DNA of 64,000 bases from Isurus oxyrinchus. Lineage: Eukaryota. The notes beneath the pieces were generated by a model that was not told the DNA's origin, did not search any database, and saw only the letters and a program-made list of their open reading frames with translations. Location: assembly GCA_026770705.1 (NCBI GenBank), contig JANJGN010000150.1:620001-684000 (forward strand), given 5' to 3'. Shown in pieces: positions 6,610 to 63,314 of the stretch; position 1 is the stretch's first letter; the number at the start of each line of letters is the position of its first letter. The position numbers and the translations under genes are program-made.

Positions 6610-6726
6610 TTATAAATTCCCATAAACAGAATCCTTGGCAAATTCACCGTTTGCGTAAAGATCATCATCTGTATCAGGATTGACTCCGCGGTTAGATTTC
6701 ATTTCCAGATCCTTCTCATCATTCTT
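6610..6726 (-). CDS. Gene A terminal exon with LYAN and SVYGNL (ITIM consensus)
   Basis: Phase-0 acceptor. KNDEKDLEMKSNRGVNPDTDDDLYANGEFAKDSVYGNL* with TAA at 6612-6610. Confidence 0.8.
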   Translation of the reverse strand, partial: KNDEKDLEMKSNRGVNPDTDDDLYANGEFAKDSVYGNL

Positions 6727-6824
6727 CTGTAATAGAAACAGAAATGATCAGAGTGACAATCAGAGTGATCAGTGTTTAGTATTATTGATCCAAATCGAAA
6801 ATTCCACCCACAATAGATACATTA

Positions 6825-7275
6825 ATTATTGATACTGAACAGGGTTTTATTATTGATAATGAACGGGGTTTGATTATTGATACTGAACGGGGTTTGATTA
6901 TTGATTCTGAACGGGGTTTGATTATTGATTCTGAACGGGGTTTGATTATTGATTCTGAACGGGATTTGATTATTGATACTGAACGAGGTTTGATTATTAA
7001 TTCTGAACGGGGTTTGATTATTGATACTGAATGGGGTTTGATTATTGATTCTGAACGGAGTTTGATTATTGATACTGAACGGGGTTTGATTATTGATACA
7101 GATCGGGGTTTGATTATTGATACTGAACGGGGTTTGATTATTGATACAGATCGGGGTTTGATTATTGATACTGAACGGGGTTTGATTATTGATACAGATC
7201 GGGGTTTGATTATTGATATCGAACGGGGTTTGATTATTGATACTGAACGGGGTTTGATTATTGATTCTGAACGGT
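6825..7275. repeat. 24-bp tandem repeat, about 19 units (GATTATTGATACTGAACGGGGTTT)
   Basis: Direct tandem units. Reads IIKPRS(V/E)S on the minus strand. Confidence 0.95.
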
Positions 7276-7407
7276 GTTGGGTGTGAGTTTGGTTGGGTTT
7301 GGGAGTGACTGTATAAAACATTGCAGATGCAGGACTGGAGCAGCCATATCAATAACCAGGCTACTGGAGCAGCTGAGAGGCTGGGGATCCTGTGGTGTGT
7401 GACTCAC

Positions 7408-7512
7408 CTGATTCCTCCAAGCCCAACCACACTCACAGTTTTCATAAACAGGACCTCGATATTCATCAACACGATGGTTCGATTTGATTCCTGCTTTCCC
7501 CTCGCCTCTCTT
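7408..7512 (-). CDS. Gene A cytoplasmic exon 2 (YEN motif); alternative donors after 7437 (phase 1) or 7408 (phase 0)
   Basis: TATTACAG acceptor. KRGEGKAGIKSNHRVDEYRGPVYEN(CECGWAWRNQ). Two GTGAGT donors. Confidence 0.7.
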
Positions 7513-8023
7513 CTGTAATAGAGATGGAAATGGACAGAGTGACAATCAACATGATGTGTATTCGGTGTTGGGTTTGATTATTGGGGAGAGAGTTCCAGAT
7601 TTCCACTCCCCTTTGTGTGAAGAAGTGCTTCCTGAAATCACCCCTGAATGGCCTGGCTCCAATCTGAAGTTCCAGCCCCCTTGTTCTGGACTCTACCCGA
7701 CCCCCACCACCCACCCCCACCCGAGGGAATAGTTTCTCTCTATCGACCCTATCGAGTGTTTAATCAGTTTGAACCCCTCAATTAGATCCCTCCTTAATCT
7801 TCTAGACCCGAGGGAATATAATCGTAGACTGTGTGTAACCTGTCTGCATAATTTAACCAGAAAGATGTTCTGTACAACAGACTTGAGCCTCACACCCAGA
7901 TCTCAATAATCAGTAGAAATCTTTCAAAGGCATCAATCATTGGAATCTGTCTTTATAAAGTCACAACATCAACAAAGGACGGTGTTGGTGGTGGAAGTGA
8001 ATTCCAATCGTTCCGTTACTTAC

Positions 8024-8108
8024 CCAGGACCTGTCCGACTGCTCGCCTGGGGAGGAACTGCCCACACGCTCTGCTTGGGCTGAATGACCTCTTCCTGTGC
8101 TGCTCCCT
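8024..8108 (-). CDS. Gene A cytoplasmic exon 1
   Basis: 85 nt, phase 2-0, which is the phase needed after the TM exon. (K)GSSTGRGHSAQAERVGSSSPGEQSDRSW, donor GTAAGT. Confidence 0.65.
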
Positions 8109-8864
8109 CTGTGTATTTAATGAGAAAGGGTTGATGTGTCTCTGTGAGTCAAATCAGGAATTGGGGAACAATTGTGAAAACCCTTTCACTGAAACGTAGT
8201 GCCTTAGTGTTGTGTTGTAAACAAACTGTTAACCCTTTGTGTCCTGACTCTGTGACGTGATTCCTGTGTAAAGCTGAGCAGTCGTTGAGCGACTTTCAAT
8301 TCACTGCTCAGTCCAGATGTTGAGGTGGATCTTCTGAAGGAGCAGATGTTGCTCAGCACTCCTTAAAAATGTCAGATACTGAACATTGTGTAAGAGGACA
8401 AGAGAGAGAATGAGAAGGAGAGCATTAGTGGAGATAAGAGAGAGAGTGAATGAGAGAGAGAATGAGAAGGAGAGAATTAGTGGAGATTAGAGAGAGAGTG
8501 AATGAGAGAGAGAATGAGAAGGCCAGCATTAGTGGAGATAAGAGAGAGTGAATGAAACACGGAAAATGGAAAGAGATTGCATTCACTAACAAAAGAAAGG
8601 TTTTCATTTATATAGCACCTTTCACATCCTCAGGAGGTCACAATGTATTTTATGGTCCGGGTCAACACTGCCTGTTACAGGACTGAGTTGTGAAACAGTG
8701 AAAGGTGGATGAGATGTTAAACAGTAGGTGAACATCAAAACTCTTCAGGGGCTGTGAAGGGTTTTGGATGGTAAAAGGTGCTATTGAAATGCAAGTTCTT
8801 TCTATAAGGAGAGAAGGTTGAAGAAAAAATGTTTGAAATCAACCAATTAAACCTTCGCACTTAC

Positions 8865-8961
8865 TTTCTCACACACTTGAAGATGAAGAATCCACTCAGT
8901 CCAACATTCAAACAGATTCCAGCTCCAAGCAATCCTGCTTTCCATTCATTGGAATCTCGCC
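8865..8961 (-). CDS. Gene A transmembrane exon
   Basis: TTTTACAG acceptor, 97 nt, phase 1-2. RDSNEWKAGLLGAGICLNVGLSGFFIFKCVRK, donor GTAAGT. Same length and phase as the gene C TM exon. Confidence 0.85.
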
Positions 8962-9149
8962 CTGTAAAATCAGCCAATGAATGACTCCGGTACAGTTTGA
9001 GAATGGTTCCCTATGTACATGTAGTAATTCTGAACTTGTGAAGTGATATTTTCTATGCATGAAAGGTCTATACAAATAACATATATCTATGTAATATTTA
9101 TTGATAATATCCATGTACATGCAGGTTTCTATAAGGAGGATTCACATAT

Positions 9150-10195
9150 AACAGAGGTGCCAAGCTGCTGAGGTGACACACAGGACTACATACACACCAA
9201 ACAGCGGAAACAACATGCTATAGACAGAGCAAAGCGATCCCACAACCAACGGGTCAGATCTAAGCTCTGCAGTCCTGCCACATCCAGTCATGAATGGTGA
9301 TGGACAATTAAAGATCTAACAGGAGGAGGATGTTCCACAAATATCCCCATCCTTAATGATGGGGGAGCTCAGCACATCAGTGCAAACGACAAGGCTGAAG
9401 CATTGGCAACCATGTTCAGCCAGAAGTGCTGAGTGGATGCTCCATCTCGGCCTCCTCCAGAGGGTCCCAGCATCACAGATGTCAGCTTTCAGAAAATTCG
9501 ATTGACTCCACGTGACATCAGGAATCAGCTGATGATACTGGATACAGCAAAGGCTATTGGCCCTGGCAACAACCCAGCAACTGGAAATAATGTGGCTACA
9601 AGAGCGGGTAAGAGGCTGGGAACTCTGTGGTGAGTAACTCACCTCCTGACTCCCCAAAGCCTGTCCACCATCGGACAAGGCACAAGTCAGGAGTGTGATG
9701 GAATAATCTCCACTTGGCTGGATGAGTACAGCTCCAACAACACTCAAGAAGCTTGACACCATCCAGGAGCAGCTTGTTTGATCGACAGCCCATCCACCAG
9801 CATAAACATTCATACCCTCCACCACTGGCACACAGTGGCAGCAGTGTGCACCATCTACAAGATGCACTGCAGCAACTCACCAAGGCTCCTTCGACAGCAC
9901 CTTCCAAACCCTTAACCTCTTCCACCGAGACAGTTCCAAGTCAGTGAGGTGTGTGACTTGGAGGCGAACTTGTGGTGTTGGTCTTCCATGAGATTTGGAA
10001 ATATATCGGCCGTACCTTCACCGTCGCTGGGACAAAATCATGGAACTCCCTCCCTAACAGCACTGTGGGTGTACCTACACCACATGGACTGCAGTAGTTA
10101 AAGAAGGCAGCTCACCACCACCTTCTCAAGGGGCAGTTACAGATGGGCAATAATTTCTGGCCTTGTCAACAATGCCCATATCCCATGAGCTAATA
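9150..10195 (+). mobile_element. Degenerate CR1-clade LINE 3' fragment
   Basis: Decayed RT C-terminal peptides and the 3' tail GGGCA.TTA.GGATGGGCAATAA shared with copies at 27050-27510 and 30140-30600 (+), and 22915-23655, 59670-60135 and 62640-63105 (-). Confidence 0.75.
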
Positions 10196-10226
10196 AAAAC
10201 AGAATGTTCAATTCTGTGTAACTCAC

Positions 10227-10508
10227 GTTCCACAGTGATGGTTATGAACCCGTCCACTGCTCCATGTTCATTCTCTGCCACACACTGATAGTCTCCAGTG
10301 TCCCTGGATGTAACGTGAGGAATCACCAACCACAGCTCATTGTTGGAACTTGTTCTGTTCATTGGGACATTAAGATGTCGCCACGTCAGGTTAGAAGCTG
10401 GGAAGCTCTCGACAGAGCAGATTATCACTGCAGGATTCCCCTCAATTATATTGATCGATGAAGCGTTAATCATATCAAGAGAAGTAATTGATAGGTTCCG
10501 TGGTGCAT
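10227..10508 (-). CDS. Gene A C2-set Ig exon
   Basis: 282 nt, phase 1-1. DAPRNLSI...IICSVESFPASNLTW...DTGDYQCVAENEHG...ITVE. Confidence 0.92.
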
Positions 10509-11541
10509 CTAAATACAAATAAAGGTTTCATTGTGAGCAAACACAGTGCACAGCAAGACTCCATGATACATCTCTCTCTATTTGGTGTCTATGTGCATTT
10601 CAAGGTTTCTGTCCAGTTTTAAGTTCCTATGTCAACTTTTATAATGGTCACTGCCGGCGTTTTTCTTTTTGTACATTCATGGGAAGTGGCTGTATCTATC
10701 TAGACCAGCATTTATTACCCATCCCTAATAGCCCTTGAGGAGGTGGTGGTGAGTTTTTCACCCCCGCAGAATTCCCAGCCTCTGACCGGCTCCTGTAGCC
10801 ACAGTATTTATTGGCCGGTCCAGTTCGGTGTTTGGTTAACATCCCCCAGGATGTTGATTGTGGGGGATTCAGTGATAGGAAACTCACTGAACATCAAGGG
10901 GAGATGGTTAGATTCTCTCTTGTTGGAGATGCTCACTGCCTGGTGCTTGTGATGCATTATTTCTCATTTCTCAGCCCAAGCTGAGTGTTATTCAGCTCTT
11001 GCTGCGTGTGGACATGTAAACTGTCACGCTGTAATTACAGCCTTCCACCAGAGGAGACACTGTCGGGCTAGGAGAAAAGAAAATGTCTTTCACATCATCA
11101 GGATGTTCACAGGGATTTGACAGTGGAGGAATTGCTTTAGAATAATGGGGTATTGAGTGATAAACCTACAATTCTCTGTGCAGGGGGCTGCTCGTCCAAT
11201 ACAGGGTCTTGTTCAGCTGATGTCGTCAGTGTTTCAGAGCAGAATCTGGAGCAACACTCCAGTGCAGCACAGGGAGAACAGACAACTCACACATGTCTGT
11301 GTGTGTGTGAGCAAGCACACGTGTGATTCTGTGTATGTTTCCTTCTGTGTGTGTGCATGCAGGTGTACACACCTGTGCACATGTGGGATTGCACATGAAT
11401 GCNNNNNNNNNNNNNNNNNNNNNNNNNNNNNNNNNNNNNNNNNNNNNNNNNNNNNNNNNNNNNNNNNNNNNNNNNNNNNNNNNNNNNNNNNNNNNNNNNN
11501 NNNNNNNNNNNNNNNNNNNNNNNNNNNNNNNNNTAACTCAC

Positions 11542-11822
11542 ATTCCACAGTGATGGTTCTGAATCCCTCCACTGCTCCATGTTCATTCTCTGCCACACAC
11601 TGATAGTCTCCAATGTCCCTGGATGTAACGTGAGGAATCACCAACTACAGCTCATTGTTGGAACTTGTTCTGTTCATTGGGACATTAAGATGTCGCCACG
11701 TCAGGTTAGAAGCTGGGAAGCTCTCGACAGAGCAGATTATCACTGCAGAATCCCCTCAATTATATTGATCGATGAAGCGTTAATCATATCAAGAGAATTA
11801 ATTGAGAGATTCTGTGGTGCAT
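11542..11822 (-). pseudogene. Gene A C2-set Ig exon copy with 1-bp deletion (frameshifted, skippable)
   Basis: 281 nt versus 282 nt for the paralogue. Plus strand CACTGCAGAATCCCC versus CACTGCAGGATTCCCC. Reads DAPQNLS...IIEGILQ* while the splice sites are intact. Confidence 0.8.
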
Positions 11823-11954
11823 CTAAAAACAAATAAACATCAATTACGTTACACTGACTGTGAAGCACTTTGAAAGACACTGAGAATGTGAAAGGTGTGA
11901 TATCAATATAGGTTCTTTCACCACAAAGCCCATAATTCAGCCAGACACCTCAGT

Positions 11955-12645
11955 TCAGTACTGAGGGTGTGCTGCACTGTGGGAGGGTCAGTACTGAGGG
12001 AGTGCTGCACTGTCAGAGAGTCAGTGCTGAGGGAGTACTGCACCATCAGAGATTCAGTACTGAGGGAGTGCTGAACTGTCAGAGGGTCAGTACTGAGGGA
12101 GTGCTGTACTGTCGGTGGGTAAGTACTGAGGGAGTGCTGCACTGTCAGAGAGTCAGTAAGGAGGGAGTGCTGCACTGTCAGAGGTTCAGTACATAGGGAC
12201 TGCTGCACTGTCTGATGGTCAGTACAGAGGGGTTGTTGCACTGTCGGAGGGTCAGAAATGAGGATGTGCTGCACTCTCAGAAGGTCAGTACTGAGGGGGT
12301 GCTGCACTGTCGAAGAGTCATTACTGAGGGGGTGCTGCACTGTGGGAGGGTCAGTACTGAGGGAGCACTGCACTGTTGAAGGGTCAGTACTGAGGGAGTG
12401 CTGCACTGTCGAAGGGTCAGTACTGAGGGAGTGCTGCACTGTTAGAGGGTCAGTACAGAGGGAGTGCTGCACTGTCAGAGGGTCAGTACTGAGGGAGCAC
12501 TGCACTGTTGAAGGGTCAGTACTGAGGGAGTGCTGCACTGTCAAAGGGTCAGTACTGAGGGAGTGCTGCACTGTCAGAGGATCAGTACTGAGGGAGTGCT
12601 GCAGTGTTGGAGAGTCAGTATTCAAGGACTGCTGCAGTGTCAGAG
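11955..12645. repeat. 33-bp minisatellite (CAGTACTGAGGGAGTGCTGCACTGTCAGAGGGT)n
   Basis: Tandem units. Other arrays at 1-100, 25635-25815, 28620-28900 and 61380-61660. Confidence 0.95.
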
Positions 12646-12765
12646 GCGGATTTGTATCAGTTAAAGACTATTGATTTGTTGCTAAACACAATGCAGTTGT
12701 GGGATCTTGCAGTGTACTATGAAGAGCATTCTAGCTAACGTAGATGGAAGGGTGTCCGTTCTTAC

Positions 12766-13062
12766 CTTGCACAGTTAGTATGAGGGTCCGCTCCGATGAA
12801 ACAGATGGATATCTCACTCTGCAGCTGAGAGTGTGTCCGTGGTGTTTGAGTGATGGGATCAGGGTCAGAACAGAAGTATAGGTCAGAGTGACACCATGCT
12901 GAGTTACAGTGTTTGAGACTGATCCAGGTACGTCAGTGGGAGTGTCCCAGGTTAAGACAGGTGCTGCTGTTCCATTGCACGTTGTGTTGAAGGTGCAGCT
13001 TACATCCACACGCTTTCCTGCAATAATTTCAGCAGGGAATATCGTGGGTTTATCTGTGAAAT
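12766..13062 (-). CDS. Gene A Siglec domain-2 type C Ig exon
   Basis: 297 nt, phase 1-1. DFTDKPTIFP...VSCTFNTTCNGTAAPVLTW...LSCRVRY, including the extra BC-loop Cys typical of Siglec domain 2. Confidence 0.92.
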
Positions 13063-13433
13063 CTAACAGACAGGGAATGGATCCTTTTAGAGAAATATAA
13101 TGTGAAGCATCAGTTCAAATAGAAACCACAGTCCCATAACAGAAAGCACTTTTACAAGGATGATATCAGAACTGAGATGTTTTAACGATCCTGATAGACT
13201 GTTAGACACGATTCGAGAGATCGATGGGAGTGGAATACATTTAATCATTGATATTAAAGTGAGTTTTAAATGTTGCTTTAGGACTGAACTGGAAGCTATC
13301 ACCAGGTTATTGAGAATCAGACAGTGTGTTATAATAAGCTGTGTTTTGTGTTAATATGTAAACGTCACAGTTTGTGTTATTTCCCATTGAGTGTTGAATG
13401 TGAATTGTTGAGTAATTATAACACAGCACTTAC

Positions 13434-13802
13434 CAGAAACGTGAAGCTGGGTTACAGGGTAATAGTTATGTCTCGGACCATTGTCAAATTCTATTCTGAA
13501 AAAATAAGGTCCTGCATCTTCCCGTCTGATGTTGTTTATAATCAGGGAACAGTCGCCATCTTTCAGGTCTCCAGACAGCCGGGTCCGATGGTGGAACCGT
13601 GGTAACTCGTGACTGTGATCCTTGGAGTGAAAGGCTATGGGAGCCCAGGGAATCTGTTTCTCATTATTAAACCAGACTCCACCTCGCGGTTGGTTTTCCA
13701 GACACAATGGATAACTGTAATGACATGGAATCTGTACACACGAACCTTCCTGAGCTGTCACCTCTCGTGGAGTGTCACCTTTCCACTCTTGTGAGGGTTC
13801 AG
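13434..13802 (-). CDS. Gene A Siglec-type V-set Ig exon V2
   Basis: 369 nt, phase 1-1, starts AEPSQEW, YFFR Arg retained, extra Cys in YPLC. Confidence 0.92.
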
Positions 13803-15460: not shown

Positions 15461-15829
15461 CAGAAACGTGAAGCTGGGTTACAGGGTAATAGTTATGTCT
15501 CGGACCATTGTCAAATTCTATTCTGAAAAAATAAGGTCCTGCATCTTCCCGTCTGATGTTGTTTATAATCAGGGAACAGTCGCCATCTTTCAGGTCTCCA
15601 GACAGCCGGGTCCGATGGTGGAACCGTGGTAACTCGTGACTGTGATCCTTGGAGTGAAAGGCAATGGGAGCCCAGGGAATCAGTTTCTCATTATTAAACC
15701 AGACTCCACCTCGTGGTTGGCTTTCCAAATGTGCTGGATAACTGTAATGACATGGAATCTGTACACACGAACCTTCCTGCGCTGTCACCTCTCGTGGAGT
15801 GTCACCTTTCCACTCTTGTGACAGTCCAA
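15461..15829 (-). CDS. Gene A Siglec-type V-set Ig exon V1
   Basis: 369 nt, phase 1-1, AG/GT intact. Motifs GSCVQIPC, W, DCSLIINNIRREDAGPYFFR: Siglec-type B-E cysteines and the F-strand Arg. Confidence 0.92.
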
Positions 15830-25486: not shown

Positions 25487-25943
25487 CTACAGAGAAATGG
25501 AAACAGAAGATATCCTCACATCATTTACTGGCACTGATAGGGTTAAATTATTGTGCAGCCTCGTTACTGTCAGTCGTGGCTCAGTGGGTTTAACTCTCCT
25601 TCCCATGTCTTATGATAGAAACCACCTAAGGCATGTGCAGCACTCTCTCAGTACTGACCCTCCGACAGTGCAGTGCTCCCTCGGTACTGACCCTCCGGCA
25701 GTGCAGTACTCCCTCAGTACTGACCCTCCGGCAGTGCAGTACTCCCTCAGTACTGACCCTCCGACAATGCAGCACTCCCTCAGTACTGACCCTCTGTCAG
25801 TCTCGCACTCCCTCGGTAATGGCTCTGGCGAGTGACGGCTTGGATTCTGCACACAGGTGCCTGGTGTGAGGCTCAATAACATGCACCTTGTAATCAGAGA
25901 GAGGATGAGAGAGAGGGATAGAGATGAAGGGACAGAGACAGAG

Positions 25944-26701: not shown

Positions 26702-26836
26702 GAGAGACAGCATGGTACTGAACCATTGCTGACTCCACAGGTACAAATCAGTGGGTAACTGGGCTGGGAATCTGGGACATGTGTTGTCTACACACTGAGA
26801 TTGAAGCTTTGGAGTGAGTGTAAACAGTTCCTGTAC

Positions 26837-26918
26837 CTGGTGCTTCACAGAGAGTGGACTGGGGGTCAATGCAATGTCACTGGTCCCTGAAACTCTCTCC
26901 TCCATCGCTGTCTTTCTC
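26837..26918 (-). CDS. Orphan cytoplasmic exon 1 (RKTAMEERVSGTSDIALTPSPLSVKHQ)
   Basis: 82 nt, phase 2-0, AG/GT intact. Paralogue of 60265-60346. Confidence 0.65.
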
Positions 26919-28226: not shown

Positions 28227-28475
28227 TCAGTTTCGCTTGAATCTGATCTGTGCGTATTCCGTCTGCTCTTCCCTGTGGACAGACCCATCACCACTGGTCA
28301 CCCTGAAGACTTGGGGATTGGTGTAGAGAAGCTCGTTGGGATTGTCAGGGTTCCCATGTCCAGCATCGCCTCTCACTGCACATTCAGAGAGACCCCGGGG
28401 AGCTGGGGTCTCCCCCTCACTAGTTGTGTCTCTGGTTGTGTTCCGGGGCTCAGTAATCAGCACGTTCTGTTTACC
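28227..28475 (-). CDS. Orphan terminal cytoplasmic exon (LLYTNP, TEYAQI), ends RFKRN*
   Basis: Open frame with intact acceptor. Second tandem copy. Confidence 0.7.
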   Translation of the reverse strand, partial: GKQNVLITEPRNTTRDTTSEGETPAPRGLSECAVRGDAGHGNPDNPNELLYTNPQVFRVTSGDGSVHREEQTEYAQIRFKRN

Positions 28476-29922
28476 CTACAGAGAAATGGAAACAGAAGAC
28501 ATCCTCACATCATTTACTGGCACTGATAGGGTTAAATTATTGTGCAGCCTGGTTAGTGTCAGTCGTGGGTCAGTGGGTTTAAACCTCTCTCACATGTCTT
28601 ATGAAAGAAAACACCTATGGCAGTGCAGTGCTCCCTCAGTACTGACCCTTCGATAGTGCAGCACTTCCTCAATGCTGACCATCCAACAGTGCAGCACTCC
28701 CTCAGTACTGACCCTCCAACAGTGCAGCGCTCCCTCAGTACTGACCCTCCAACAGTGCAGCGCTCCCTCAGTACTGACCCTCCGACAGTACAGGTCTTCC
28801 TCAGTACTGACCCTCTGACAGTGCAGCACTCCCTCAGTACTGACCCTCTGACAGTGCAGCACTCCCTCAGTACTGACCCTCTGTCAGTCTTGCACTCCCT
28901 CGGTAATGGCTCTGGCGAGTGTCGGCTTGGATTCTGCACTCAGGTGCCTGGTGTGAGGCTCAATAACATGAATCTTGTAATCAGAGAGAGGATGAGAGAG
29001 AGAGAGAGAGATGAAGGGTCAGAGACAGAGCGTTATGAATCTATTAATGTATGTATTGTAATTGGAAATTGTCTTTTTAAACAGAGGTTTAGTCTGTGGG
29101 TGTGTGTGTGTGTGTTTTAATTGGAATAAAGCCAGCCGTCTGGGTACTTTGATGTATAGTAGTTTTGAGATGTAAACAAAGAGGTAAAGAGGCATATTGC
29201 ATTTTTAAAAGGAGGATTCAAAGCCTGGGAGTGAATTCTTAAACCAATCAATGTTTATATTACTAATAAAATTGATACTATGAAACGGGATTTATTGTTA
29301 GAAGAGATGGAGATCAAAGGTCCTGATGATACAATGAGAATTTACTTACAAAGAGAAGCACTGGGTATAACTTGAGCAGTTTTGTGTGTGCAGAGCAGAG
29401 GCTTGTAACATCAAAGCAGCTGTAAGCCTACACCTGTCTGCAAAAGAACCAAAGTGAAAGGAACCTCATTTGGAATTTGTGAGGTGAAAATGCTTTGCTT
29501 GGAATCTGCTTAAAGTCTATGGGTTGTCTTAGAGGACGTTAGTTTGGGAATTTGTTAAAAAGTTATGATAGTACTAGCTTGTAGCCATGTGCATATGATT
29601 AACTTGTGAAAATTAATAAATGTCTCATGTAGTTTGATATAAACCCATCTCAAGAACTGATGGTGTTATTCCTGAATTTAGAGCTGCATCTCAAACATTC
29701 CACTGGGAAATATAGGTTATGACACTTGTTTAAAGTTTCCCTCTGGGATTTTAAACAACAGCCTTTAGCAGTCGCTGTGTCATAACAGAGAGACAGCATG
29801 ATACTGAACCATTGCTGACTCCACAGGTACAAATCAGTGGGTAACTGGGCAGGGAATCTGGGACACATGTTGTCTACACACTGAGATTGAAGCTTTGGAG
29901 TGAGTGTAAACAGCTCCTGTAC

Positions 29923-30004
29923 CTGGTGCTTCACAGAGAGTGGACTGGGAGTCAAGGCAATGTCACTGGTCCCTGAAACTCTCTCCTCCATCGCTGTCTT
30001 TCTC
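29923..30004 (-). CDS. Orphan cytoplasmic exon 1 copy
   Basis: 82 nt, phase 2-0, AG/GT intact. Confidence 0.65.
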
Positions 30005-31177
30005 CTGTAATAACACAATATCACACTGTGGTTATCATATAGCAGAGAGTCAGTGTAGCACAGACACAGAGCCCACTGTAATCTTAGACCAACGACTGGG
30101 ACTGTCTCTTTAAATCAGTTCTATACAAAGCACAGAATCAAGAAGCTTGACACCATCCAGGACAAAGCAGCCCGATTGATCTACACCCCATCCACCACAT
30201 TAAACATTCACTCCCTCCACAACGAACACACAGTGGAAGCAGTGTGTGTACCATCTACAAGATGCACTGCAGCAACTCAGCAAGGCTCCTTCAACAGCAC
30301 CTTCCAAACCCACGACCTCTACCATCTAGAAGGACAAGGGCAGCAGACACATGGGAACACCACCACCTGGAAGTTCCCCTCCAAGTCACTCACCATCCTG
30401 ACTTGGAAATATATCATCGTTCCTTCACTGTCGCTGGGTCAAAATCCTGGAACTCCCTCCCTAACAGCACTGTGGGTGTACCTACACCACATGGACTGCA
30501 GCGGGTCAAGAAGGCTGATCACCACCACCTTCTCAAGGGCAATTAGGGATGGGCATTAATGCTGGCATCACCAGTGACAGCCACATTCGATGTAAGAATT
30601 AAAAATCTCACAGCACAATGTATTTATTGGGATCCTCCTGCACACACGCCCTGTCGAAGGACCCTTTGTGGTTCCATTGTTAATCGAAGCAGATCAGACT
30701 TACTGCAACTACTTGCATTTATATAGCACCTTTAATGTAGCAAAATGTCCCAAGGCTCATCCGGGAATTGTTAGTCACATCTTCACCTGACTCTGAGGCA
30801 CATGAGGAGATATAAGGGACAGGAGACCAACAGCTGAGTCAACAAAGTCAGTTATTAACGGGCATCTTAAAGGAGGAGCTGGAGATAGAGAATGAGTGAC
30901 AGACACAGAAAGAAAGACAAAGAGAGGGAGAGAGAGAACAAGAGAGCGAGAGAGAGAGAGAGAGAGACAGAGAGAGACAGTGAATCTCTATCCCCAGTGG
31001 CTCAGCATCCAGTCCTCTCTGGAGAAGCATTTCATTCCAAACCACACCAACCGCAGCCCAATCCCATCCCTTCCTCCCTCTCTCCCCCTCTCCCCCAGTG
31101 GGTTGTTTCCTGTTCCCAGGAATCTCAATCACTACCCCCACCCCCACACCTCCTCACTCCCACTCCCCATTTCTCAT

Positions 31178-31426
31178 TCAGTTATGCTCGAACCTGATCT
31201 GTGCGTATTCCGTCTCCTCTTCCCTGTGGACAGACCCATCATCACTGGACATCCTCAATACTTGGGGATTGGCGTAGAGAAGGCCGTCGGGATTGTCGAT
31301 GTGCCAATGTCCAGCATCGCCTCCCAATGCACCTTCAGAGAGACCCCGGGGAGCTGGGGTCTCCCCCTCGCTAGTTGTGTCTCTGGTTGTGTTCCGGGGC
31401 TCAGAAATCAGCACGTTCTGTTTACC
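31178..31426 (-). CDS. Orphan terminal cytoplasmic exon (LLYANP, TEYAQI), ends RFEHN*
   Basis: Open frame with intact acceptor. Closest to the gene C terminal exon. Confidence 0.7.
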   Translation of the reverse strand, partial: GKQNVLISEPRNTTRDTTSEGETPAPRGLSEGALGGDAGHWHIDNPDGLLYANPQVLRMSSDDGSVHREEETEYAQIRFEHN

Positions 31427-31569
31427 CTACAGAGAAATGGAAACAGAAGACATCCTCACATTATTTACTGGCACTGATAGGGTTAAATTAATGAGCAGCC
31501 TCGTTAGTGTCAGTCTTGTCTCAGTGGGTTTAACCCTCTCTCTCATGTCATCTGAAAGAAACCACCTAT

Positions 31570-32345
31570 GGCAGTGCAGTGCTCCCTCAGTACTAACCCC
31601 CCCGACTGTGCAGCACATCCTCAATAGTGACCCTCTGTCAGTCTCACACTCCCTCATTACTGACCCTCTGTCAGTCTTGCACTCCCTCTGTACAGTGCAG
31701 CACTTCCTTAGCACTGACCCTCTGACAGTGCAGCACTTCCTTAGCACTGACCCTCTGACAGTGCAGCACTCACTCAGTACTGACCCTCCATCAGTGCAGC
31801 ACTCCCTCAGTACTGACCCTCTGACAGTGCAGCACTCCCTCACTACTGACCCTCCAACAGTGCAGCACTGCTTTAGCACTGACCCTCTGACAGTGCAGCA
31901 CTCACTCAGTACTGACCCTCCAACAGAGCAGCACTCCCTTAGCCCTGACCCTCTGACAGTGCAGCACTCCCTCACTACTGACCCTCCAACAATGCAGCAC
32001 TGCCTTAGCACTGACCCTCTGACAGTGCAGCACTCACTCAGTACTGACCCTCCAACAGTGCAGCACTCCCTTAGCCCTGACCCTCTGACAGTGCAGCACT
32101 CCCTCAGTACTGACCCTCCAACAGTGCAGCACTCCCTTTTCACTGACCCTCTGACAGTGCAGCACTCCCTCAGTACTGACCCTGCAACAGTGCAGCACTT
32201 CCTTAGCACTGACCCTCTGATGGTGCAGCACTCCCACATTACTGACCCTCTGACAGTGCAGCACTCACTCAGTACTGACCCCTCCAACATTGCAGCATAC
32301 CCTCTGCACTGACCCTCTGACAGTGCAGCACTCCCTCAGTAATGA
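31570..32345. repeat. 33-bp minisatellite at the junction of opposite-orientation segments
   Basis: Units of CAGTACTGACCCTCTGACAGTGCAGCACTCCCT. Confidence 0.95.
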
Positions 32346-33154: not shown

Positions 33155-33194
33155 ATGATCGGGAAATCTTACTTCCTCCTGTCACTTCTCCAAG
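33155..33194 (+). CDS. Gene B signal-peptide exon (coding part; acceptor at 33113)
   Basis: ATG, MIGKSYFLLSLLQ, CAAG|GTAATA. Confidence 0.85.
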
Positions 33195-37085: not shown

Positions 37086-37451
37086 TTGGACTACCACAAG
37101 TGTGGAAAGGTGACACTCCACGAGAGGTGACAGCGCAGGAAGGTTCGTGTGTACAGATTCCGTGTCATTACAGCTACCCATCATATTTAGTACCGAGATC
37201 ACCTGTTGGAATCTGGTATATGAGACGGAATTGGGAAACATGGTCTATAGCCTTTCACTCCAAGGATCACAGTCGCGAGTTACCACGGTTCCACCATCGG
37301 ACCCGGCTTTCTGGAGACCTGAAAGATGGTGACTGTTCCCTGATTATAAACAACATCAGACGGGAAGATGCAGGATATTATTTATTCAGAACAGATTTTG
37401 ACAGCAGGAATAGATACAACGACCGTCCTGAAACCCAGCTTCATGTTTCTG
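37086..37451 (+). CDS. Gene B V-set exon V1
   Basis: 366 nt, phase 1-1. GSCVQIPC, DCSLIINNIRREDAGYYLFR (Arg retained), divergent loops. Confidence 0.92.
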
Positions 37452-39180: not shown

Positions 39181-39546
39181 CTGAACCCTCGCAAGAGTGG
39201 AAAGGTGACACTCCACGAGAGGTGACAGTGCAGGAAGGTTCCTGTGTACAGATTCCATGTCATTACAGTTATCCATCGTGTCTGGAAAACCAACCGTGAG
39301 GTGGAGTCTGGTTTAATAATGAGGAATGGAGAACATCGTCTATAGCCTTTCACACCAAGGATCACAGTCACGAGTTACCACGGTTCCACCATCGGACCCG
39401 GCTGTCTGGAGACCTGAAAGATGGCGACTGTTCCCTGATTATAAACAACATCAGACGGGAAGATGCGGGTCCTTATTTTTTCAGAATAGAATTTGACAAT
39501 GGTCCGAGCCATAACTATTACCCTGTAACCCAGCTTCACGTTTCTG
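39181..39546 (+). pseudogene. Gene B V2 exon, inactivated
   Basis: CGA->TGA stop at 39297-39299 and donor changed to G|ATAAGT. Confidence 0.88.
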
Positions 39547-40274: not shown

Positions 40275-40571
40275 ATTTCACAGATAAACCCACGATATTC
40301 CCTGCTGAAATTATTGCAGGAAAGCCTGTGGATGTAAGCTGCACCTTCAACACAACGTGCAATGGAACAGCAGCACCTGTCTTAACCTGGGACACTCCCA
40401 CTGACGTACCTGGATCAGTCTCAAACACTGTAACTCAGCATGGTGTCACTCTGACCTATACTTCTGTTCTGACCCTGATCCCATCACTCAAACACCACGG
40501 ACACACTCTCAGCTGCAGAGTGAGATATCCATCTGTTTCATCGGAGCGGACCCTCATACTAACTGTGCAAG
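40275..40571 (+). CDS. Gene B Siglec domain-2 type C Ig exon
   Basis: 297 nt, intact, almost identical to gene A 12766-13062. Donor G|GTTAGT. Confidence 0.9.
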
Positions 40572-40894: not shown

Positions 40895-41032
40895 GACATC
40901 TGAATATCACAATGAACAGAACAAGTTCCAACAATGAGCTGTGGTTGGTGATTCCTGGAGACTGGAGACTATCAGTGTGCTCAGAGAATGAACATGGAGC
41001 AGTGGAGGGGTTCATAACCATCACTGTGGAAC
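40895..41032 (+). pseudogene. Gene B C2 exon remnant (5' half and acceptor lost, internal deletions)
   Basis: Only the MNRTSSNNELWLVIP...ENEHGAVEGFITITVE part is recognisable, with deletions relative to 10227-10508. Confidence 0.8.
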
Positions 41033-42153: not shown

Positions 42154-42293
42154 ACAGTGGAGGAGAGATTCTGCACGTGATCCTGATCCTGGGAATACGA
42201 GCTGTGATATTCCTTGTGCCTGTGGTTATCACTATCGCTGGAGTCTGTGTCTGGGAGAGACAAACAGTGAAAGGAAGTCGACAGACTGTTTGA
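42154..42293 (+). CDS. Gene B terminal TM exon with intramembrane Arg and short tail (activating type)
   Basis: Polypyrimidine TCTCTAG acceptor, phase 1. SGGEILHVILILGIRAVIFLVPVVITIAGVCVWERQTVKGSRQTV*. Arg codon at 42198-42200. Confidence 0.82.
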
Positions 42294-43729: not shown

Positions 43730-45555
43730 ACTGACAGTGCAGCGTTTCCTCAGTGCTGACCCTCCATCAGTGCAGCGTTCCCTCATTACTGTCCCTCTGA
43801 CAGTGCTGCACTACCTCATTATTGACCCTTTTCAAGTGCAGCACCCCGTCAGCACTGACCTTCTGACAGTGCAGCACTCCCTCTTGGATGACAATCTGGC
43901 AGTGCAGCACTCCCTCAGTACTCACTCACCCACAGTGCAGCATTCCCTCAGTACTGATCCTCTGATACTGTATCCCTCCCTCACTACTGACCTTCCGACA
44001 GTTCAGCACTCCCTCAGTACTGACGCTCCCACAGTGCAGCACTCCCTCAATTCTCACCCTCCCACAGTGCAGCCCTCCCTCTGTACACACCCTCCCACAG
44101 TGCAGCCCTCCCTCAGTACTCACTCACCCGAAGTGCAGCACTCCCTCAGTACTCCCCCTCCCACAGTGCAGCACTCCCTCAGTACTCCCCCTCCCACAGT
44201 GCAGCACTCCCTCAATTCTCACCCTCCCACAGTGCAGCACTCCCTCAGGACTCACCCTCCCACAGTGCAGCCCTCCCTCAGTACTCACTCTCCCGAAGTG
44301 CTGTGCGAGTTGTTTCAATCAAGACTGGTGCCCCAAGAGGGAGGTTTCAATGCTAAATCATTGAATTCCGTGAAAATTATTTTTAGGCTTACGGGAACAA
44401 GACTTAGTTCCTCAAATCCTTTCTTTTGCAATAACACACCGTACAAGAATCTCTGTTTAAATAAATTCCAGTTAAACTTTGCCATGAAAGGATATCTCCT
44501 CACGCTCCGCTCTACCTCAGTACTAACCCTCCCACAGTCCGGCACCCCCTCAATACTGACCCTCCAACTGTGCGGAACTCACTCAGTACAGACCCTCCGA
44601 CAGTGCAGCACTCCCACATTACTGACCCTCTGACAGTGCAGCCCTCCCACATTACTGACCCTCTGACAGTGCAGCACTCCCTCATTACTGACCACCTGAC
44701 AGTGCAGACCTCCCACATTACTGACCCTCTGACAGTGCAGCCCTCCCACATTACTGACCCTCTGACTGTGCAGCCCTCCCACATTACTGACCCTCTGATA
44801 GTGCAGCACTCCCTCATTACTGACCACCTGACAATGCAGACCTCCCACATTACTGACCCTCTGACAGTGCAGCCCTCCCACATTACTGACCCTCTGACAG
44901 TGCAGCACTCCCTCATTACTGATCCTCTGACAGTGCAGCACTCCCTCAGTACTCACTCTCCCACAGTGCAGCACTCCCTCAGTACTCACACTCCCACAGT
45001 GCAGCCCGCGCTCAGTACTCACCCTCCCACAGTGCAGCACTCCCTCAGTACTCACCCTCCCACTGTGCTGTGCGAGTTGTTTCAATCAAGACTGGTGCCC
45101 AAAGAGGCAAGTTTCAAAGCTAAATCATTGAAATCTGTGAAAATTATTTTTAGGGTTATGGGAACAAGACTTAGTTCCTCAAATCCTTTCTTTTGCAATA
45201 ACACACAGTACAAGAATTGTGTTTAAATAAATTCCAGTTAAACTCTGCCATGAAAGGATATCTCCTCACACTCCACTCTACCTCAGTACTAACCCTCCCA
45301 CAGTCCGGCACCCCCTCAATACTGACCCTCCAACTGTGTGGAACCCACTCAGTACAGACCCACCGACAGTTCAGCACTCCCACATTATTTACCCTCTGAT
45401 AGTGCAGCACTCCCTCATTACTGACCCTCTGATGTTGCAGCACTCCCACATTACTGACTCTCTGACCGTGCAGCCCTCCCACATTACTGACCCTCTGATA
45501 GTGCAGCACTCCCACAGTACAGTGCCGCTGACAGTGCAGCACTCCCTCCGTAATG
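43730..45555. repeat. 33-bp minisatellite with two embedded ~205-bp unique cassettes, at the B/C duplication boundary
   Basis: Tandem units, cassettes at about 44297-44503 and 45066-45270. Confidence 0.9.
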
Positions 45556-46366: not shown

Positions 46367-46406
46367 ATGATCGGGAAATCCTACTTCCTCCTGTCACTTC
46401 TCCAAG
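46367..46406 (+). CDS. Gene C signal-peptide exon (coding part)
   Basis: ATG, MIGKSYFLLSLLQ, CAAG|GTAATA. Confidence 0.85.
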
Positions 46407-50824: not shown

Positions 50825-51202
50825 TTGGATTGTCACAAGAGTGGAAAGGTGACACTCCACGAGAGGTGACAGCGCAGAAAGGTTCGTGTGTACAGATTCC
50901 ATGTCATTACAGTTATCCATCAGATTTGGTAAAGAAACCACATGTCGGAATCTGGAAAATGAGAAGCTACATACGGAACAAATGGTCTAAATGGTCTACA
51001 GCCTTTCACTCCAAGGATCACAGTCGCGAGTTACCACGGTTCCGCCATCGGACCCGGCTGTCTGGAGACCTGAAAGATGGCGACTGTTCCCTGATTATAA
51101 ACAACATCAGACGGGAAGATGAAGGACCTTATTTTTTCATGATAAAATTTGGCAATGGTCCGAGCCATAACGTTTCCCCTGTAACCCAGCTTCAGGTTTC
51201 TG
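50825..51202 (+). CDS. Gene C V-set exon V1 (essential Arg replaced by Met)
   Basis: 378 nt, phase 1-1. EDEGPYFFMIKF. Confidence 0.92.
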
Positions 51203-52400: not shown

Positions 52401-52449
52401 CCTCCCTATTACAGTAATCTCCTCCTCTTCCTTCATCCACGGCAACATT

Positions 52450-54553: not shown

Positions 54554-54922
54554 CTGAACCCTCACAAGAGTGGAAAGGTGACACTCCACGAGAGGTGACA
54601 GCGCAGGAAGGTTCGTGTGTACAGATTCCATGTCATTACAGTTATCCATCGTGTCTGGAAAACCAACCGCGAGGTGGAGTCTGGTTTAATAATGAGAAAC
54701 AGATTCCCTGGGCTCCCATTGCCTTTCACTCCAAGGATCACAGTCACGAGTTACCACGGTTCCACCATCGGACCCGGCTGTCTGGAGACCTGAAAGATGG
54801 CGACTGTTCTCTGATTATAAACAACATCAGACGGGAAGATGCAGGACCTTATTTTTTCAGAATAGAATTTGACAATGGTCCGAGCCATAACTATTACCCT
54901 GTAACCCAGCTTCACATTTCTG
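54554..54922 (+). CDS. Gene C V-set exon V2
   Basis: 369 nt, phase 1-1. YFFR retained, extra Cys in YPSC. Confidence 0.92.
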
Positions 54923-58520: not shown

Positions 58521-59191
58521 CTTCACAAGGTCATCTGTCCCTGACATCACCTCATGTGACTCAGGGTCTTGACAGGTTTTAGTCAACAGTAAACAGGCAG
58601 AAATTGGAGATTGATTAATATTCATATATTTCATTGATAACATTATCAATAAATGATGCATTGAAAAGGGTGACCTGTATTTATTGAATGATCAGATCGT
58701 CCCGAAACACTTTACAGTCAACGATATATGTTTGAAGCAATGTCATGTTGTAATGTAGGAAACACGGCACCAACCTGTGCACAGCAAGATCCCACAAAGC
58801 AAGGTGACAGTGATCTGATAATGTATTATTTTAGTGATGTTGGTTGATACGTATATAGAGATCACATGTATAGGGTGGGTCACTAATGTCCCTTTAGGGA
58901 GGGAAACCTGTCCATTTTAACTGGTCTGGGTGTGTATGTGACTCCAGTCTGTAACACCAACATGGTTAACTCTTACCTGCCCTCTGAACTGGTCTCCCAG
59001 TTTGGGACAAACCAGTGGTTCAGGAGGAAGACCCCCCCACCACCTTCTCAAGGGGAAACTAGGGATGGACAATAAATGTCAGCATTGCCCGAGAATGAGT
59101 ATTTAAACACTGAGTGAGTGTATCGCTTCTCGAGATACATCGGAGCATCATTGTAAACCTGTAGTGCAGTAATTAATGGCTGTTTTTACAG

Positions 59192-59288
59192 GTAGAGACT
59201 CCAGTAAATGGACAGTAGGATTGTTCACGGCTGGGATCATGTTGAGTGTTTTCCTGGCTGGAATCTTCATCTTCATCTGTGTCAGAAA
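59192..59288 (+). CDS. Gene C transmembrane exon (uncharged)
   Basis: 97 nt, phase 1-2. RDSSKWTVGLFTAGIMLSVFLAGIFIFICVRK, donor GTAAGT. Confidence 0.88.
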
Positions 59289-60264
59289 GTAAGTCTGAAG
59301 ATTTAACTTGATTTTACTATAAGCATTTGCTTCAATGTTCTTTCCTTAAGTCGGTGATTGTTTCCCTTGGGATCAGCACCAATTCCCTCTCCGTAAGTGA
59401 TCCCTGTGTCCACTGTGATCCGGAGAGAACCTTTCATTGTCCTGTATCCAGGTAAACGATCACGAGACCCAGAGATTCCTCACTCTGCACGATTACTCCT
59501 GGATTGTATCAGGTCACCTTGTGATTCCACACAACCGGAGTGGTGGTTATAACCATCAGGAATGATTGAACAGTCGATTGGGCAGTGGGACTAATTGGAC
59601 AATTTTTACAAAGGGCCAGCACAGGCACGATGGGCTGAGTGGCTTCCTCCTGAGCTGTGAGATTTTAAATGCTTTCATTGAATGTGGCTGTCTCTGGTGA
59701 GGCCGCTATTAATTGCCCATCTCTAATTGCCCCTTGAGAAGGTGGTGGTGAGCTGCCTTCTTGACCCGCTGCAGTCCATGTGGTGTAGGTACACCCACAG
59801 TGCTGTTCGGGAGGGATTTCCAGGAGTTTGACTCAGCGACAGTGAAGGAACGGTGATATATTTCCAAGTCAGGATGGTGAGTGACTTGGAGGGGAACTTC
59901 CAGGTGGTGGTGTTCCCATGTGTCTGCTGCCCTTGTCCTTCTAGATGGTAGAGGTCGTGGGTTTGGAAGGTGCTGTCGAAGAAGCCTTGCTGAGTTGCTG
60001 CAGTGCATCTTGTAGATGGTACACACACTGCTGCCACTGTGTGTTCATGGTGGAGGGAGTGAATGTTTAATGTGGTGGATGGGGTGTAGATCAATCGGGC
60101 TGCTTTGTCCTGGATGGTGTCAAGCTTCTTAATTCTGTGCTTTGTGCAGAAGTGATTTAAAGAGACAGTCCAGTCGTTGGTGTAAGGTTACAGTGGGCTC
60201 TGTGTCTGTGCTGCACTGACTCTCTGCTATATGATAACCACAGTGTGATATTGTGTTATTGCAG

Positions 60265-60346
60265 GAGAAAGACAGCGATGGAGGAGAGAGTTTCAGGGAC
60301 CAGAGACATTGCATTGACCCCCAGTCCACTCTCTGTGAAACACCAG
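60265..60346 (+). CDS. Gene C cytoplasmic exon 1
   Basis: 82 nt, phase 2-0. RKTAMEERVSGTRDIALTPSPLSVKHQ. Confidence 0.82.
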
Positions 60347-61802
60347 GTACAGGAACTGTTTACACTCACTCCAAAGCTTCAATCTCAGTGTGTAGACAAC
60401 ACGTGTCCCAGATTCCCAGCCCAGTTACCCACTGATTTGTACCTGTGGAGTCAGCAATGGTTCAGTATCATGCTGTCTCTCTGTTATGACACAGCAACTG
60501 GTAAAGGCTGTTGTTTAAAATCCCAGAGGGAAACTTTAAACAACTGTCATAACCTATATTTCCCAGTGGAATGTTTGAGATGCAGCTCTAAATTCAGGAA
60601 TAAGACCACCAGTTCTCGAGATAGTTGTATATTAAACTACATGAGACATTTATTAATTTACACAAGTTAAACATATGCACATGGCTACAAACTAGTATTA
60701 TCATGACATTGTAACAAATTCTCCAGCTAACCTCCTCTAAGACAACCCATAGACTTTAAGCAGACACAAGGCAAAGCATTTTCACCTCACAAATTCCAAA
60801 TAATGTTCCTTTCACTTTGGATCCTTTGCAGACAGGTGTAGGCTTACAGCTGCTTTGATGTTACAAGCCTCTGCTCTGCACACACAAAACTGCTCAAGTT
60901 ATACCCAGTGCTTCTCTTTGAATGTAAATTCTCATTGTATCATCAGGACCTTTGAACTCCACCTCTTCTAACAATAAATCTGATTTCATAGTATCAATTT
61001 TATTAGTAATATAAACGTTGATTGATTTAAGATTTCACTCCCAGGCATTGAATGCTCTATTTAAAAATGCAAATTGCCTTTTTACCTCCCTGTTTACATC
61101 TCAAAATTACTTTATATCAAAGCACCCAATTAATCCAAATAAAACACACACAGACACATCCACAGATGAAACCTCTATTTTAACAAAAATAATTTCCAAA
61201 AACATGATATTCATTAATCGCATCATGACAGTCTCTGTCTCTATCCCTACGTCCCTTTCTTTCTCTCTCTCTCTCTCTCTCTCATCCTGTTGCTGATTAC
61301 TAGTTTCATGTTATTGAGCCTCACACCAGACACCTGAGTGCAGAATCCAATCTGTCACTCACCAGAGCCATTACCGAGGGAGTGCGGGACTGACAGCAGG
61401 TCAGTACTGAGGGAGTGCTGCACTGTCAGAGGGTCAGTACTGAGGGAGTGCTGCACTGTCAGAGGGTCAGTACTGAGGGAGTGCTGCACTGTCAGATGGT
61501 CAGTACTGAGGGAGTGCGAGACTGACAGAGGGTCAGTAATGAGGGAGTGTGAGACTGACAGAGGGTCAGTAATGAGGGAGTGTGAGACTGACAGAGGGTC
61601 ACTATTGAGGATGTGCTGCACAGTTGGGGGGGTCAGTACTGAGGGAGCACTGCACTGCCATAGGTGGTATCTTTCAGATGACATGAGAGAGAGGGTTAAA
61701 CCCACTGAGACAAGACTGACACTAATGAGGCTGCTCAATAATTTAACCCTATCAGTGCCAGTAAATGATGTGAAGATGGCTTCTGTTTCCATTTCTCTGT
61801 AG

Positions 61803-62051
61803 GGTAAACAGAACGTGCTGATTACTGAGCCCCGGAACACAACCAGAGACACAACTAGTGAGGGGGAGACCCCAGCTCCCCGGGGTCTCTCTGAAGGTGC
61901 AGTGGGAGGTGATGCTGGACATTGGCACATCGACAAACCTGAAGAGTTTCTCTACGCCAATCCCCAAGTTTTGAGGGTGTCCAGTGGTGATGGGTCTGTC
62001 CACAGAGAAGAGGAGACGGAATACGCACAGATCAGGTTCGAGCATAACTGA
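61803..62051 (+). CDS. Gene C terminal exon with FLYANP and TEYAQI (ITSM)
   Basis: Phase 0. GKQNVLITEPR...EEFLYANPQV...EEETEYAQIRFEHN*. TxYxxI as in the distal motif of CD33-related Siglecs. Confidence 0.85.
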   Translation, partial: GKQNVLITEPRNTTRDTTSEGETPAPRGLSEGAVGGDAGHWHIDKPEEFLYANPQVLRVSSGDGSVHREEETEYAQIRFEHN

Positions 62052-62251
62052 ATGAGAAACGGGGAGAGGGAGTGAGGAGGTATCAAGGTGGGGGTAGTGA
62101 TCGAGATTCCTGGGAACAGGAAACAACCCACTGGGGGAGAGGGGGAGAGAGGGAGGAAGGGATGGAATTGGGCTGCGGTTGGTGTGGTTTGGAATGAAAT
62201 GCTTTTCCAGAGAGGACTGGATGCTGAGCCATTGGGGACCGAGATTCACTG

Positions 62252-62284
<33 letters not shown>

Positions 62285-63232
62285 CCCTCCCTCTCTCGCT
62301 CTCTCTCTCTCCCTGTCTCTGTCTTTCTTTCTGTGTCTGTCTCTCATTCTCTATCTCCAGCTCCTCCTTTAAGATGCCCGTTAATAACTGACTTTGTTGA
62401 CTCAGCTGTTGGTCTCCTGTCCCTAATATCTCCTCATGTGCCTCAGAGTCAGGTGAAGATGGACTAACAATCCCCGGATGAGCCTTGGGACATTTTGCTA
62501 CATTGAAGGTGCTATATAAATGCAAGTAGTTGTAGTAACTCTGATCTGCTTCGATTAACAATGGAACCACAAAGGCTCCTTTGACAGGGCGTGTGTGCAG
62601 CAGGGTCACAATAAATACATTGATCTGTGTGATTTTTAATTCTTTCATCAAATGTGGCTGTCACTGGTGATGTCAGCGTTAATGCCCATCCCTAATTGCC
62701 CTTGAGAAGGTGGTGGCGAGCTGCCTTCTTGACCCGCTGCAGTCCATGTGGTGTAGGTACACCCACAGTGCTGTTAGGGAGGGAGCTCCAGGATTTTGAC
62801 CCAGCGACAGTGAAGGAACGGTGATATATTTCCAAGTCAGGATGGTGAGTGACTTGGAGGGGAACTTCCAGGTGGTGGTGTTCCCATGTGTCTGCTGCCC
62901 TTGTCCTTCTAGATGGTAGAGGTCGTGGGTTTGGAAGGTGCTGTTGAAGGAGCCTTGCTGAGTTGCTGCAGTGCATCTTGTAGATGGTACACACACTGCT
63001 GCCACTGTGTGTTCGTGGTGGAGGGAGTGAGTGTTTAATGTGGTGGATGGGGTGTAGATCAATCGGGCTGCTTTGTCCTGGATGGTGTCAAGCTTCTTGA
63101 TTCTGTGCTTTGTGCAGAAGTGATTTAAAGAGACAGTCCAGTCGTTGGTGTAAGGTTACAGTGGGCTCTGTTTCTGTGCTGCTCTGACTCTCAGCTATAT
63201 GATAACCACAGTGTGATATTGTGTTATTGCAG

Positions 63233-63314
63233 GAGAAAGACAGCAACGGAGGAGAGAGTTTCAGGGACCAGAGACATTGCATTGACTCCCAGTCCACTAT
63301 CTGTGAAGCACCAG
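63233..63314 (+). CDS. Second copy of gene C cytoplasmic exon 1 (next tail module, continues beyond the window)
   Basis: 82 nt, AG/GT intact. RKTATEERVSGTRDIALTPSPLSVKHQ. Confidence 0.65.

Follow-up and report, generated by a model that had tools for sequence, protein, structure and literature searches.

How can hundreds of receptor exons remain almost uniform over most of their length and at the same time carry loops of many kinds? The question is raised by a 64,000-nucleotide stretch of the Isurus oxyrinchus genome (assembly GCA_026770705.1, contig JANJGN010000150.1, positions 620,001 to 684,000 of the forward strand; hereafter the window, whose own numbering is used), in which six Siglec-type V exons lie in three genes, A, B and C. 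An initial annotation of their first V exons (A-V1, B-V1 and C-V1) had described CDR-like hypervariability confined to three loops and had proposed diversifying selection, perhaps driven by pathogens, on the membrane-distal domain. The segments that it quoted are all present in the window, and the contrast that it drew holds: framework DNA of the three exons is 96–97% identical, loop DNA 52–63%.

Shark proteomes already annotate these genes as Siglec-like. The literature searched, outside which most subscription journals fall, yielded no paper on a shark Siglec cluster, and the 12 of 24 supplementary files of PMC8455134 that were searched gave no match; the available part of the whale shark paper mentions Siglecs once.

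Results

Three genes in the window

The second V exon of gene B (B-V2; Table 1) is broken and mosaic, combining the common BC loop with a WRTSS CC′ loop; its copy at L009 has the same stop and has decayed further. Splicing could still run from leader to V1, constant exon and anchor, past the broken exon. In four public runs whose contigs are presumed to be RNA, the V-to-constant and constant-to-Arg-anchor joints appear in 4/4 and the leader-to-V joint in 2/4, all from paralogues and not from gene B. A half C2-type exon (40897–41031, plus strand) lies in gene B, as it does before most sampled Arg-type anchors, and is skipped in spliced contigs. With its Arg anchor and short tail devoid of Tyr, gene B would be of activating type; where other listed Arg-type anchors have Ala, its anchor has Pro. 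The uncharged anchor and Tyr-motif tails of gene C would make that gene inhibitory, the Tyr motifs of these genes being recognised by the ITIM/ITSM consensus. No constant exon of gene C was seen in the window, where N runs occupy 55628–57392. The anchor of gene A is uncharged too, and one of its constant exons (11543–11820) is broken.

Five orphan Tyr-motif tail exons lie at 25253–31426 on the minus strand, with no anchor or ectodomain in line. They are inverted and 90–93% identical to the tail region of gene C, and are likely the remnant of an inversion. Tandem-repeat arrays, several of them interrelated on either strand, are found in introns and between genes (157–1419, 11955–12646, 31565–32345, 43748–45546 and 52443–53586).

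Table 1. Positions of the features discussed (window numbering unless a contig is named)
Feature	Position	Strand	Basis or remark
Gene A leader, coding part	19287–19326	−	
A-V1, first V exon of gene A	15461..15829	−	common PWAP loop class
Gene A second V exon	13434..13802	−	BC-loop Cys present
Gene A remainder	6613..13063	−	constant exons, anchor exon 8864–8959, two Tyr-motif tail exons
Gene B leader exon, coding part	33155..33194	+	tblastn; leader-to-V GT..AG joint in contigs of 2/4 runs, paralogue-derived
B-V1, first V-set exon of gene B	37086..37451	+	Siglec-type, phase 1-1; AG/GT ends, open frame; pLDDT 90; sialoadhesin TM 0.87
BC loop, hypervariable segment 1, residues 32–39	37181..37204	+	entropy; model strands; silent divergence 0.25–0.33
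End of strand C and CC′ loop, hypervariable segment 2, residues 44–53	37217..37246	+	entropy; model strands
C′-D-E framework, conserved, including CDR2-equivalent stretch	37247..37372	+	silent divergence 0.07–0.08; internal neutral tree length 1.1
Arg101, aligned to sialoadhesin F-strand Arg	37388..37390	+	alignment
FG loop and start of strand G, hypervariable segment 3	37397..37432	+	entropy; silent divergence; model strands
B-V2, second V exon of gene B, broken	39181..39546	+	in-frame stop at 39297; donor is AT
Gene B first constant-type Ig exon	40275..40571	+	single constant exon of gene B
Gene B membrane-anchor exon	42154..42293	+	Arg at 42198–42200, short Tyr-less tail; anchor-constant splice in contigs of 4/4 runs, paralogue-derived
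Gene C leader, coding part	46367–46406	+	
C-V1, first V exon of gene C	50825..51202	+	Met replaces essential Arg at 51139–51141
Gene C second V exon	54554..54922	+	common class, Arg retained
Gene C uncharged anchor exon and repeated tail exons	59191..63314	+	TEYAQI motifs
NFVGRSR broken V class, examples	C52:142884, 396990, 461862, 510655; C150:605546		

A Siglec-type V domain

The initial annotation had taken the V domains to be of Siglec type, and sequence, model and fold agree on an N-terminal V-set domain of the sialoadhesin kind. Among solved structures the best sequence matches of the B-V1 protein are sialoadhesin (Siglec-1; E 5e-15) and MAG (Siglec-4; E 2e-13), both of which outrank CD33 and Siglec-5/7 in sequence as well as in fold, and the predicted structure (pLDDT 90) has the sialoadhesin V domain as its top fold match (TM 0.87). 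We do not class the genes with the CD33-related Siglecs. All protein matches of B-V1 (103/103) come from sharks and rays, the nearest from Cetorhinus and Carcharodon (75–78%); its 20-residue FG string ending QLH recurs unchanged in Carcharodon protein P0023.

Like sialoadhesin and MAG, the shark V domains have the N-terminal Trp, the F-strand Arg and a three-Cys pattern without an F-strand Cys. Cys stands at columns 21, 26 and 90 in 94, 94 and 95 of 95 intact V exons, and column 107 is an invariant Phe; this Siglec-like arrangement (two in the strand-B region, one in E, none in F) would allow intra-sheet and inter-domain disulfides. The essential Arg is found in 82 of the 95, B-V1 and A-V1 included, and is absent from C-V1 (Met) and 12 others. 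Unlike in sialoadhesin and MAG, it is missing in 11/52 first V exons, and in 2/43 later ones, the substitutes being Thr, Met, Ser, Gly and Lys. Constant-type Ig domains, a single membrane pass and either Tyr motifs or a charged anchor complete the set of family features, so that by sequence the genes would qualify as Siglecs, except for the Arg in some V classes.

A large cluster of putative paired receptors

The genome contains 721 exact copies of a 20-mer from the E strand (control 0), a lower bound on V exons given that this 20-mer was found 105 times in 1.664 Mb holding 115 V hits. Exact anchor 20-mers number 223 for the Arg type and 197 and 104 for the two others, at least 524 anchor exons in all, some of them orphans and some perhaps on redundant contigs (L010 equals L012 over 3365 bases); contig C52 alone has 65, 57 and 31 of the three types. 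Our sample takes in about 115 V exons out of 721 or more: 95 intact, 18 broken and 2 partial. The set analysed below comprises 83 distinct intact exons of the main cluster from one assembly, after removal of the broken and partial exons, 9 duplicates and 3 exons from a separate locus on contig C34.

Genes have one to seven V exons in tandem. Of the sampled units, 50 have leader, V and anchor, and in 32 of these neither a V exon nor the first constant exon is broken; the first V is broken in 11 (Arg type 8/23, Tyr-tail type 3/27), and 7 further units are cut off or lack an anchor. Five to seven tandem V exons spaced by about 2.3 kb, several nearly identical, are seen at C189:689535–705196 and C52:602694–614475, and C2-type exons number eight to twelve in other sampled genes. 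One broken V class, with an NFVGRSR BC loop, recurs mostly in Arg-anchor genes; it has been copied many times while broken and possibly serves as a conversion donor pool. The C34 locus (15129543–15189588, on a 20 Mb contig) is small and holds more divergent single-V genes with close matches among Carcharodon and Cetorhinus proteins; with a lone V fragment at C25:36073428 it offers a possible synteny anchor.

The C-V1 class is carried by 4 Arg-anchor genes, 3 Tyr-tail genes and 1 unassigned gene, the B-V1 class by one of each type: one V class sits on genes that would be activating and on genes that would be inhibitory, as in paired receptors. The Arg anchor would couple to an adaptor of the DAP12/FcR-gamma type, a charged anchor residue being what links activating Siglecs to DAP12 (PMC8198044).

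Where the variation lies

Across the 83 exons variation is concentrated in the BC loop, the CC′ loop and the FG/G region. Mean column entropy in the 42 distinct first-V exons is 1.49, 1.50 and 0.91 in these segments and 0.21–0.27 in the frameworks, and variable columns cluster (lag-1 autocorrelation 0.55; 0/5000 column shuffles as high). The three peaks that the initial annotation had seen are therefore real, but variation is not confined to them: the outward-facing positions in strands C, F and G vary too, with alternating variable columns in C and F (strands placed by the predicted model), the Arg column included.

BC and FG are the counterparts of CDR1 and CDR3. As in antibodies and T-cell receptors, variable loops stand on a fixed V scaffold; unlike there, CC′ varies and not C′C″, the classes are germline, and no J segment or recombination signal is seen. 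The CDR comparison is a loose one, the CDR2-equivalent C′-D stretch being conserved. Since ligand-face columns and the BC loop vary while C′-D does not, what varies is the ligand face of a Siglec together with the BC loop, not a set of three CDRs. The variation surrounds the Siglec binding site, the presumed ligand face. The C-C′ loop has a specific role in the glycan specificity of Siglec-7/9. More generally, variable loops round the Siglec site are thought to set fine specificity (PMC11011055).

The emphasis on the membrane-distal domain was well placed: first V domains vary several times more than later ones. A-V1, in contrast, is not a type of its own: in the loops it shares 91% identity with the second V exon of gene A and that of gene C, and it falls in the common class to which most second V exons belong. 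One BC-loop column follows gene position, with Cys in 43/46 non-first V exons and 1/49 first ones. Loops differ in length as described. Within the Trp-rich classes the CC′ steps are of 9 bases (exon lengths 366/375 and 369/378/387), in TGG-led 9-mers, which suggests slippage of a Trp unit; all CC′ length changes in intact classes are in frame.

Loops older than their scaffold

Counted as the fewest possible silent steps, silent divergence among the 83 exons is 0.33 in BC, 0.26 in CC′ and 0.22 in FG, against 0.09 and 0.07 in the two frameworks and 0.01–0.05 in constant and anchor exons (first constant exon 0.03, 49 sequences). Loop values are 3–4 times those of the framework in the same exon and some 7–10 times those of the next exon.

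Could selection for replacements raise silent divergence to this extent? We simulated one shared tree, calibrated on the framework, with omega of 3–6 to match replacement levels in the loops and without multi-base mutations. Silent divergence in BC plus FG came to 0.07–0.09, and the observed 0.27 was reached in 0/200 runs under each of 8 settings; for FG alone the observed value was reached in 0–2/200. Positive selection alone thus failed, in simulation, to yield the silent excess. Private mutations, moreover, are no denser there (15; 0.0022 per base) than in the longer framework (31; 0.0019 per base). Together with the silent excess this means that the loops are older than the scaffold that surrounds them. 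Local hypermutation in the loops was considered and rejected on the same equal rates, which rest on small numbers (46 mutations).

Other measures are less uniform. A strict count at 4-fold sites gave mixed values (BC 0.24–0.27, FG 0.02, CC′ 0.03–0.08), and was set aside for the minimum-silent count and the simulation because it compares mostly within-class pairs; the CC′ alignment is uncertain owing to indels. The intron flank upstream of the V exon has a diversity of 0.11–0.21, above that of the framework, and was given little weight, as homology of the downstream introns probably ends after about 60 bases. At 2.7, the internal neutral tree of FR1 is as long as that of F-FG (2.5), which counts against depth in the loops only. 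The C′-D-E framework, with few silent and few replacement differences, is the shallowest of the segments (1.1).

Recombination and shared loop classes

Segments of the V exon recombine. Four-gamete incompatibility grows with distance from 0.23 to about 0.4 (0/5000 permutations as low at short range), a trend unchanged when CpG sites are left out. At the thresholds chosen there are 9 BC, 12 CC′ and 11 FG classes, found in 25 combinations among the 83 exons; the two commonest CC′ classes (9 and 10) and FG classes (4 and 10) occur in all four combinations, with 5, 5, 44 and 3 exons.

Loop classes recur in many copies and in proteins of other species. Among proteins of other elasmobranchs, which supplied 132 distinct V domains, the PWAP CC′ class spans five groups – lamniform, carcharhiniform, orectolobiform and squalomorph sharks and a ray, the sawfish – with CC′ distances of 0.20–0.45 across groups, compared to 0.69–0.84 between classes inside a group. 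The best matches of the Trp-rich classes of B-V1 and C-V1 are lamniform. For 16 of 23 PWAP domains of other species the framework is closer to own-group paralogues of another class than to the same class in another group, a pattern that fails in the remaining 7, which come from catsharks, a bamboo shark and the sawfish. In a 157-domain framework tree, taxonomic group is tight, with 13 changes (shuffled 86), and PWAP nearly scattered, with 21 (shuffled mean 25; 4/200 as low), so that a slight signal of class is left; on a tree of BC and FG columns without CC′, PWAP requires 15 changes, with 0/200 shuffles as low.

Tests for positive selection

For the three loops together, the 83 exons give a pairwise pN/pS of 0.77 (95% interval 0.54–1.10) and the 42 first-V exons one of 0.92 (0.69–1.26), compared to 0.45 in the frameworks. 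The three first V exons of the window give 0.99–1.18 with averaged paths and 1.40–1.67 with the minimum-silent count; A-V1 against C-V1 gives 1.8–2.1. Codon models with one ratio and a separate tree per segment yield omega of 1.19 for BC+C, 0.93 for CC′ and 1.09 for F+FG, none different from 1, and 0.40 and 0.76 for the frameworks. Loop ratios near 1 roughly match the outcome (1 or below) that the initial annotation had set against its own proposal of diversifying selection.

What survives of that proposal is a set of weak site-level signals. A site mixture (M2a versus M1a, on a grid) favours a class above 1 in F+FG alone of six segments (P = 0.017; columns 104 and 116), and fixed-site tests, seven in number, put omega near 1.7 in the BC loop (P = 0.032), with P = 0.10 for outward F columns. 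Neither the F-FG nor the BC value survives correction for six and seven tests, and recombination inflates site tests of this kind. Outward strand columns, picked post hoc, reach 2.4–3.3 in 22 Trp-rich first V domains. A contribution of positive selection at a few sites is possible and only hinted at. Recent mutations look near neutral in loops (0.94) and framework (0.91) alike.

Discussion

A critical issue is what keeps old loops apart on a young scaffold. On balance, gene conversion and unequal crossing-over probably homogenise the scaffold while selection keeps old, recombining loop classes: a uniform scaffold and old classes are what is likely to result if conversion spreads sequence and selection rejects the tracts that erase a class. 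Conversion and unequal crossing-over, frequent among hundreds of neighbours in both orientations, would homogenise the exon; tracts overwriting a useful loop class would be lost, whereas those ending in the C′-E framework would create new loop combinations. Different classes would presumably bind different ligands. We infer conversion to be the homogeniser, balancing or diversifying selection the keeper, and ligands to be class specific. Selection on the loops appears likely, although omega near 1 and near-neutral recent mutations count against it.

These same two observations feed the main rival, which we regard as unlikely: the surface loops may be tolerant, indels and substitutions accumulating until lost homology blocks conversion tracts, so that the loops age unselected. 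An omega of about 1 in all three loop segments fits this account, as do many recent duplicates of about 99% identity, the 18 broken among 115 V exons and the relaxed constraint reported for converted Siglec-11/16 exons (PMC5701461). It does not, however, lead one to expect a PWAP motif kept across five groups, variation concentrated in first V domains, CC′ length changes that all keep frame in intact classes or the weak omega above 1 at BC-loop and F-FG sites.

Classical positive selection – one gene history, with pathogens driving replacements in the V1 loops faster than silent changes – is improbable. It has the F-FG and BC signals, the post hoc outward columns and the A-V1 to C-V1 comparison to commend it, but the P values fail correction, recombination inflates such tests, segment histories differ, and silent divergence exceeds what the model yields; as sole cause it is largely refuted by the silent excess and the simulation. 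Very improbable is a structural account in which a domain's position in the chain (its packing, its disulfide partner), and not ligands, sets the differences: the BC-loop Cys follows position as it would predict, but this explains one column, and diversity lies among first V domains that share a position. That antigen-receptor-like diversification (rearrangement, AID-type hypermutation) or assembly error made the loops is scarcely credible, for although the variability plot has the right shape and WRC/GYW density is slightly higher in loops (0.104 versus 0.083), strand G lies inside the V exon, a recombination signal (crude pattern) is found at 0/83 exon ends, private mutation rates are equal, and classes recur in copies and other species.

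The combination of conversion and selection that we favour has parallels. Primate Siglec-11/16 and Siglec-5/14 share with the shark cluster a Siglec-type V domain, inhibitory and charged-anchor genes whose ectodomains are nearly identical, and conversion across the V exon, as we propose here (PMC5701461, PMC13324755; for the likeness see also PMC13358205); such conversion is documented in Siglec-11/16 (PMC5701461). Scale differs, with 15 Siglecs in humans (PMC5701461, PMC13324755) against at least 524 anchor exons in the shark cluster, and so does outcome: primate conversion makes the V domains of a pair alike, whereas shark conversion appears to spare the loops, giving many classes. The one to seven tandem V exons of the shark genes also set them apart from primate paired Siglecs.

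CEACAM genes belong to a different Ig family. In Xenopus and mammals they nevertheless resemble the shark cluster, as we interpret it, in that conversion falls mostly within the V-type exon, the CC′FG face varies and the stretch from C′ to F is conserved (PMC5112662, PMC7042247); conversion has been described in Xenopus CEACAM N exons (PMC5112662), and selection against conversion in CEACAM32 (PMC7042247). In Xenopus CEACAM, replacements pile up after conversion with few silent changes (PMC5112662), whereas the shark loops are also silently old, and one shark loop class is common to several orders.

A wider reading, which we offer tentatively as possible rather than probable, credits lamniform sharks with an innate repertoire that is combinatorial and encoded in the germline. 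Hundreds of Siglec-like paired receptors would have arisen by shuffling ancient BC, CC′ and FG cassettes onto one scaffold, the Trp-repeat CC′ loop would change in length by slippage, and several first-domain classes would have given up the sialic-acid Arg to bind non-self ligands, in a lineage where four Siglecs had been assumed for fish.

Variable loops on paired immune receptors are to be expected; it is the scale and the mechanism that stand out. The silent-site contrast within a 366-base exon makes a clean test case of selection holding divergence peaks against conversion, and that dN/dS misreads families of this kind is a warning. With a few dozen loop classes on one scaffold, a small glycan array would directly test how loops set Siglec specificity.
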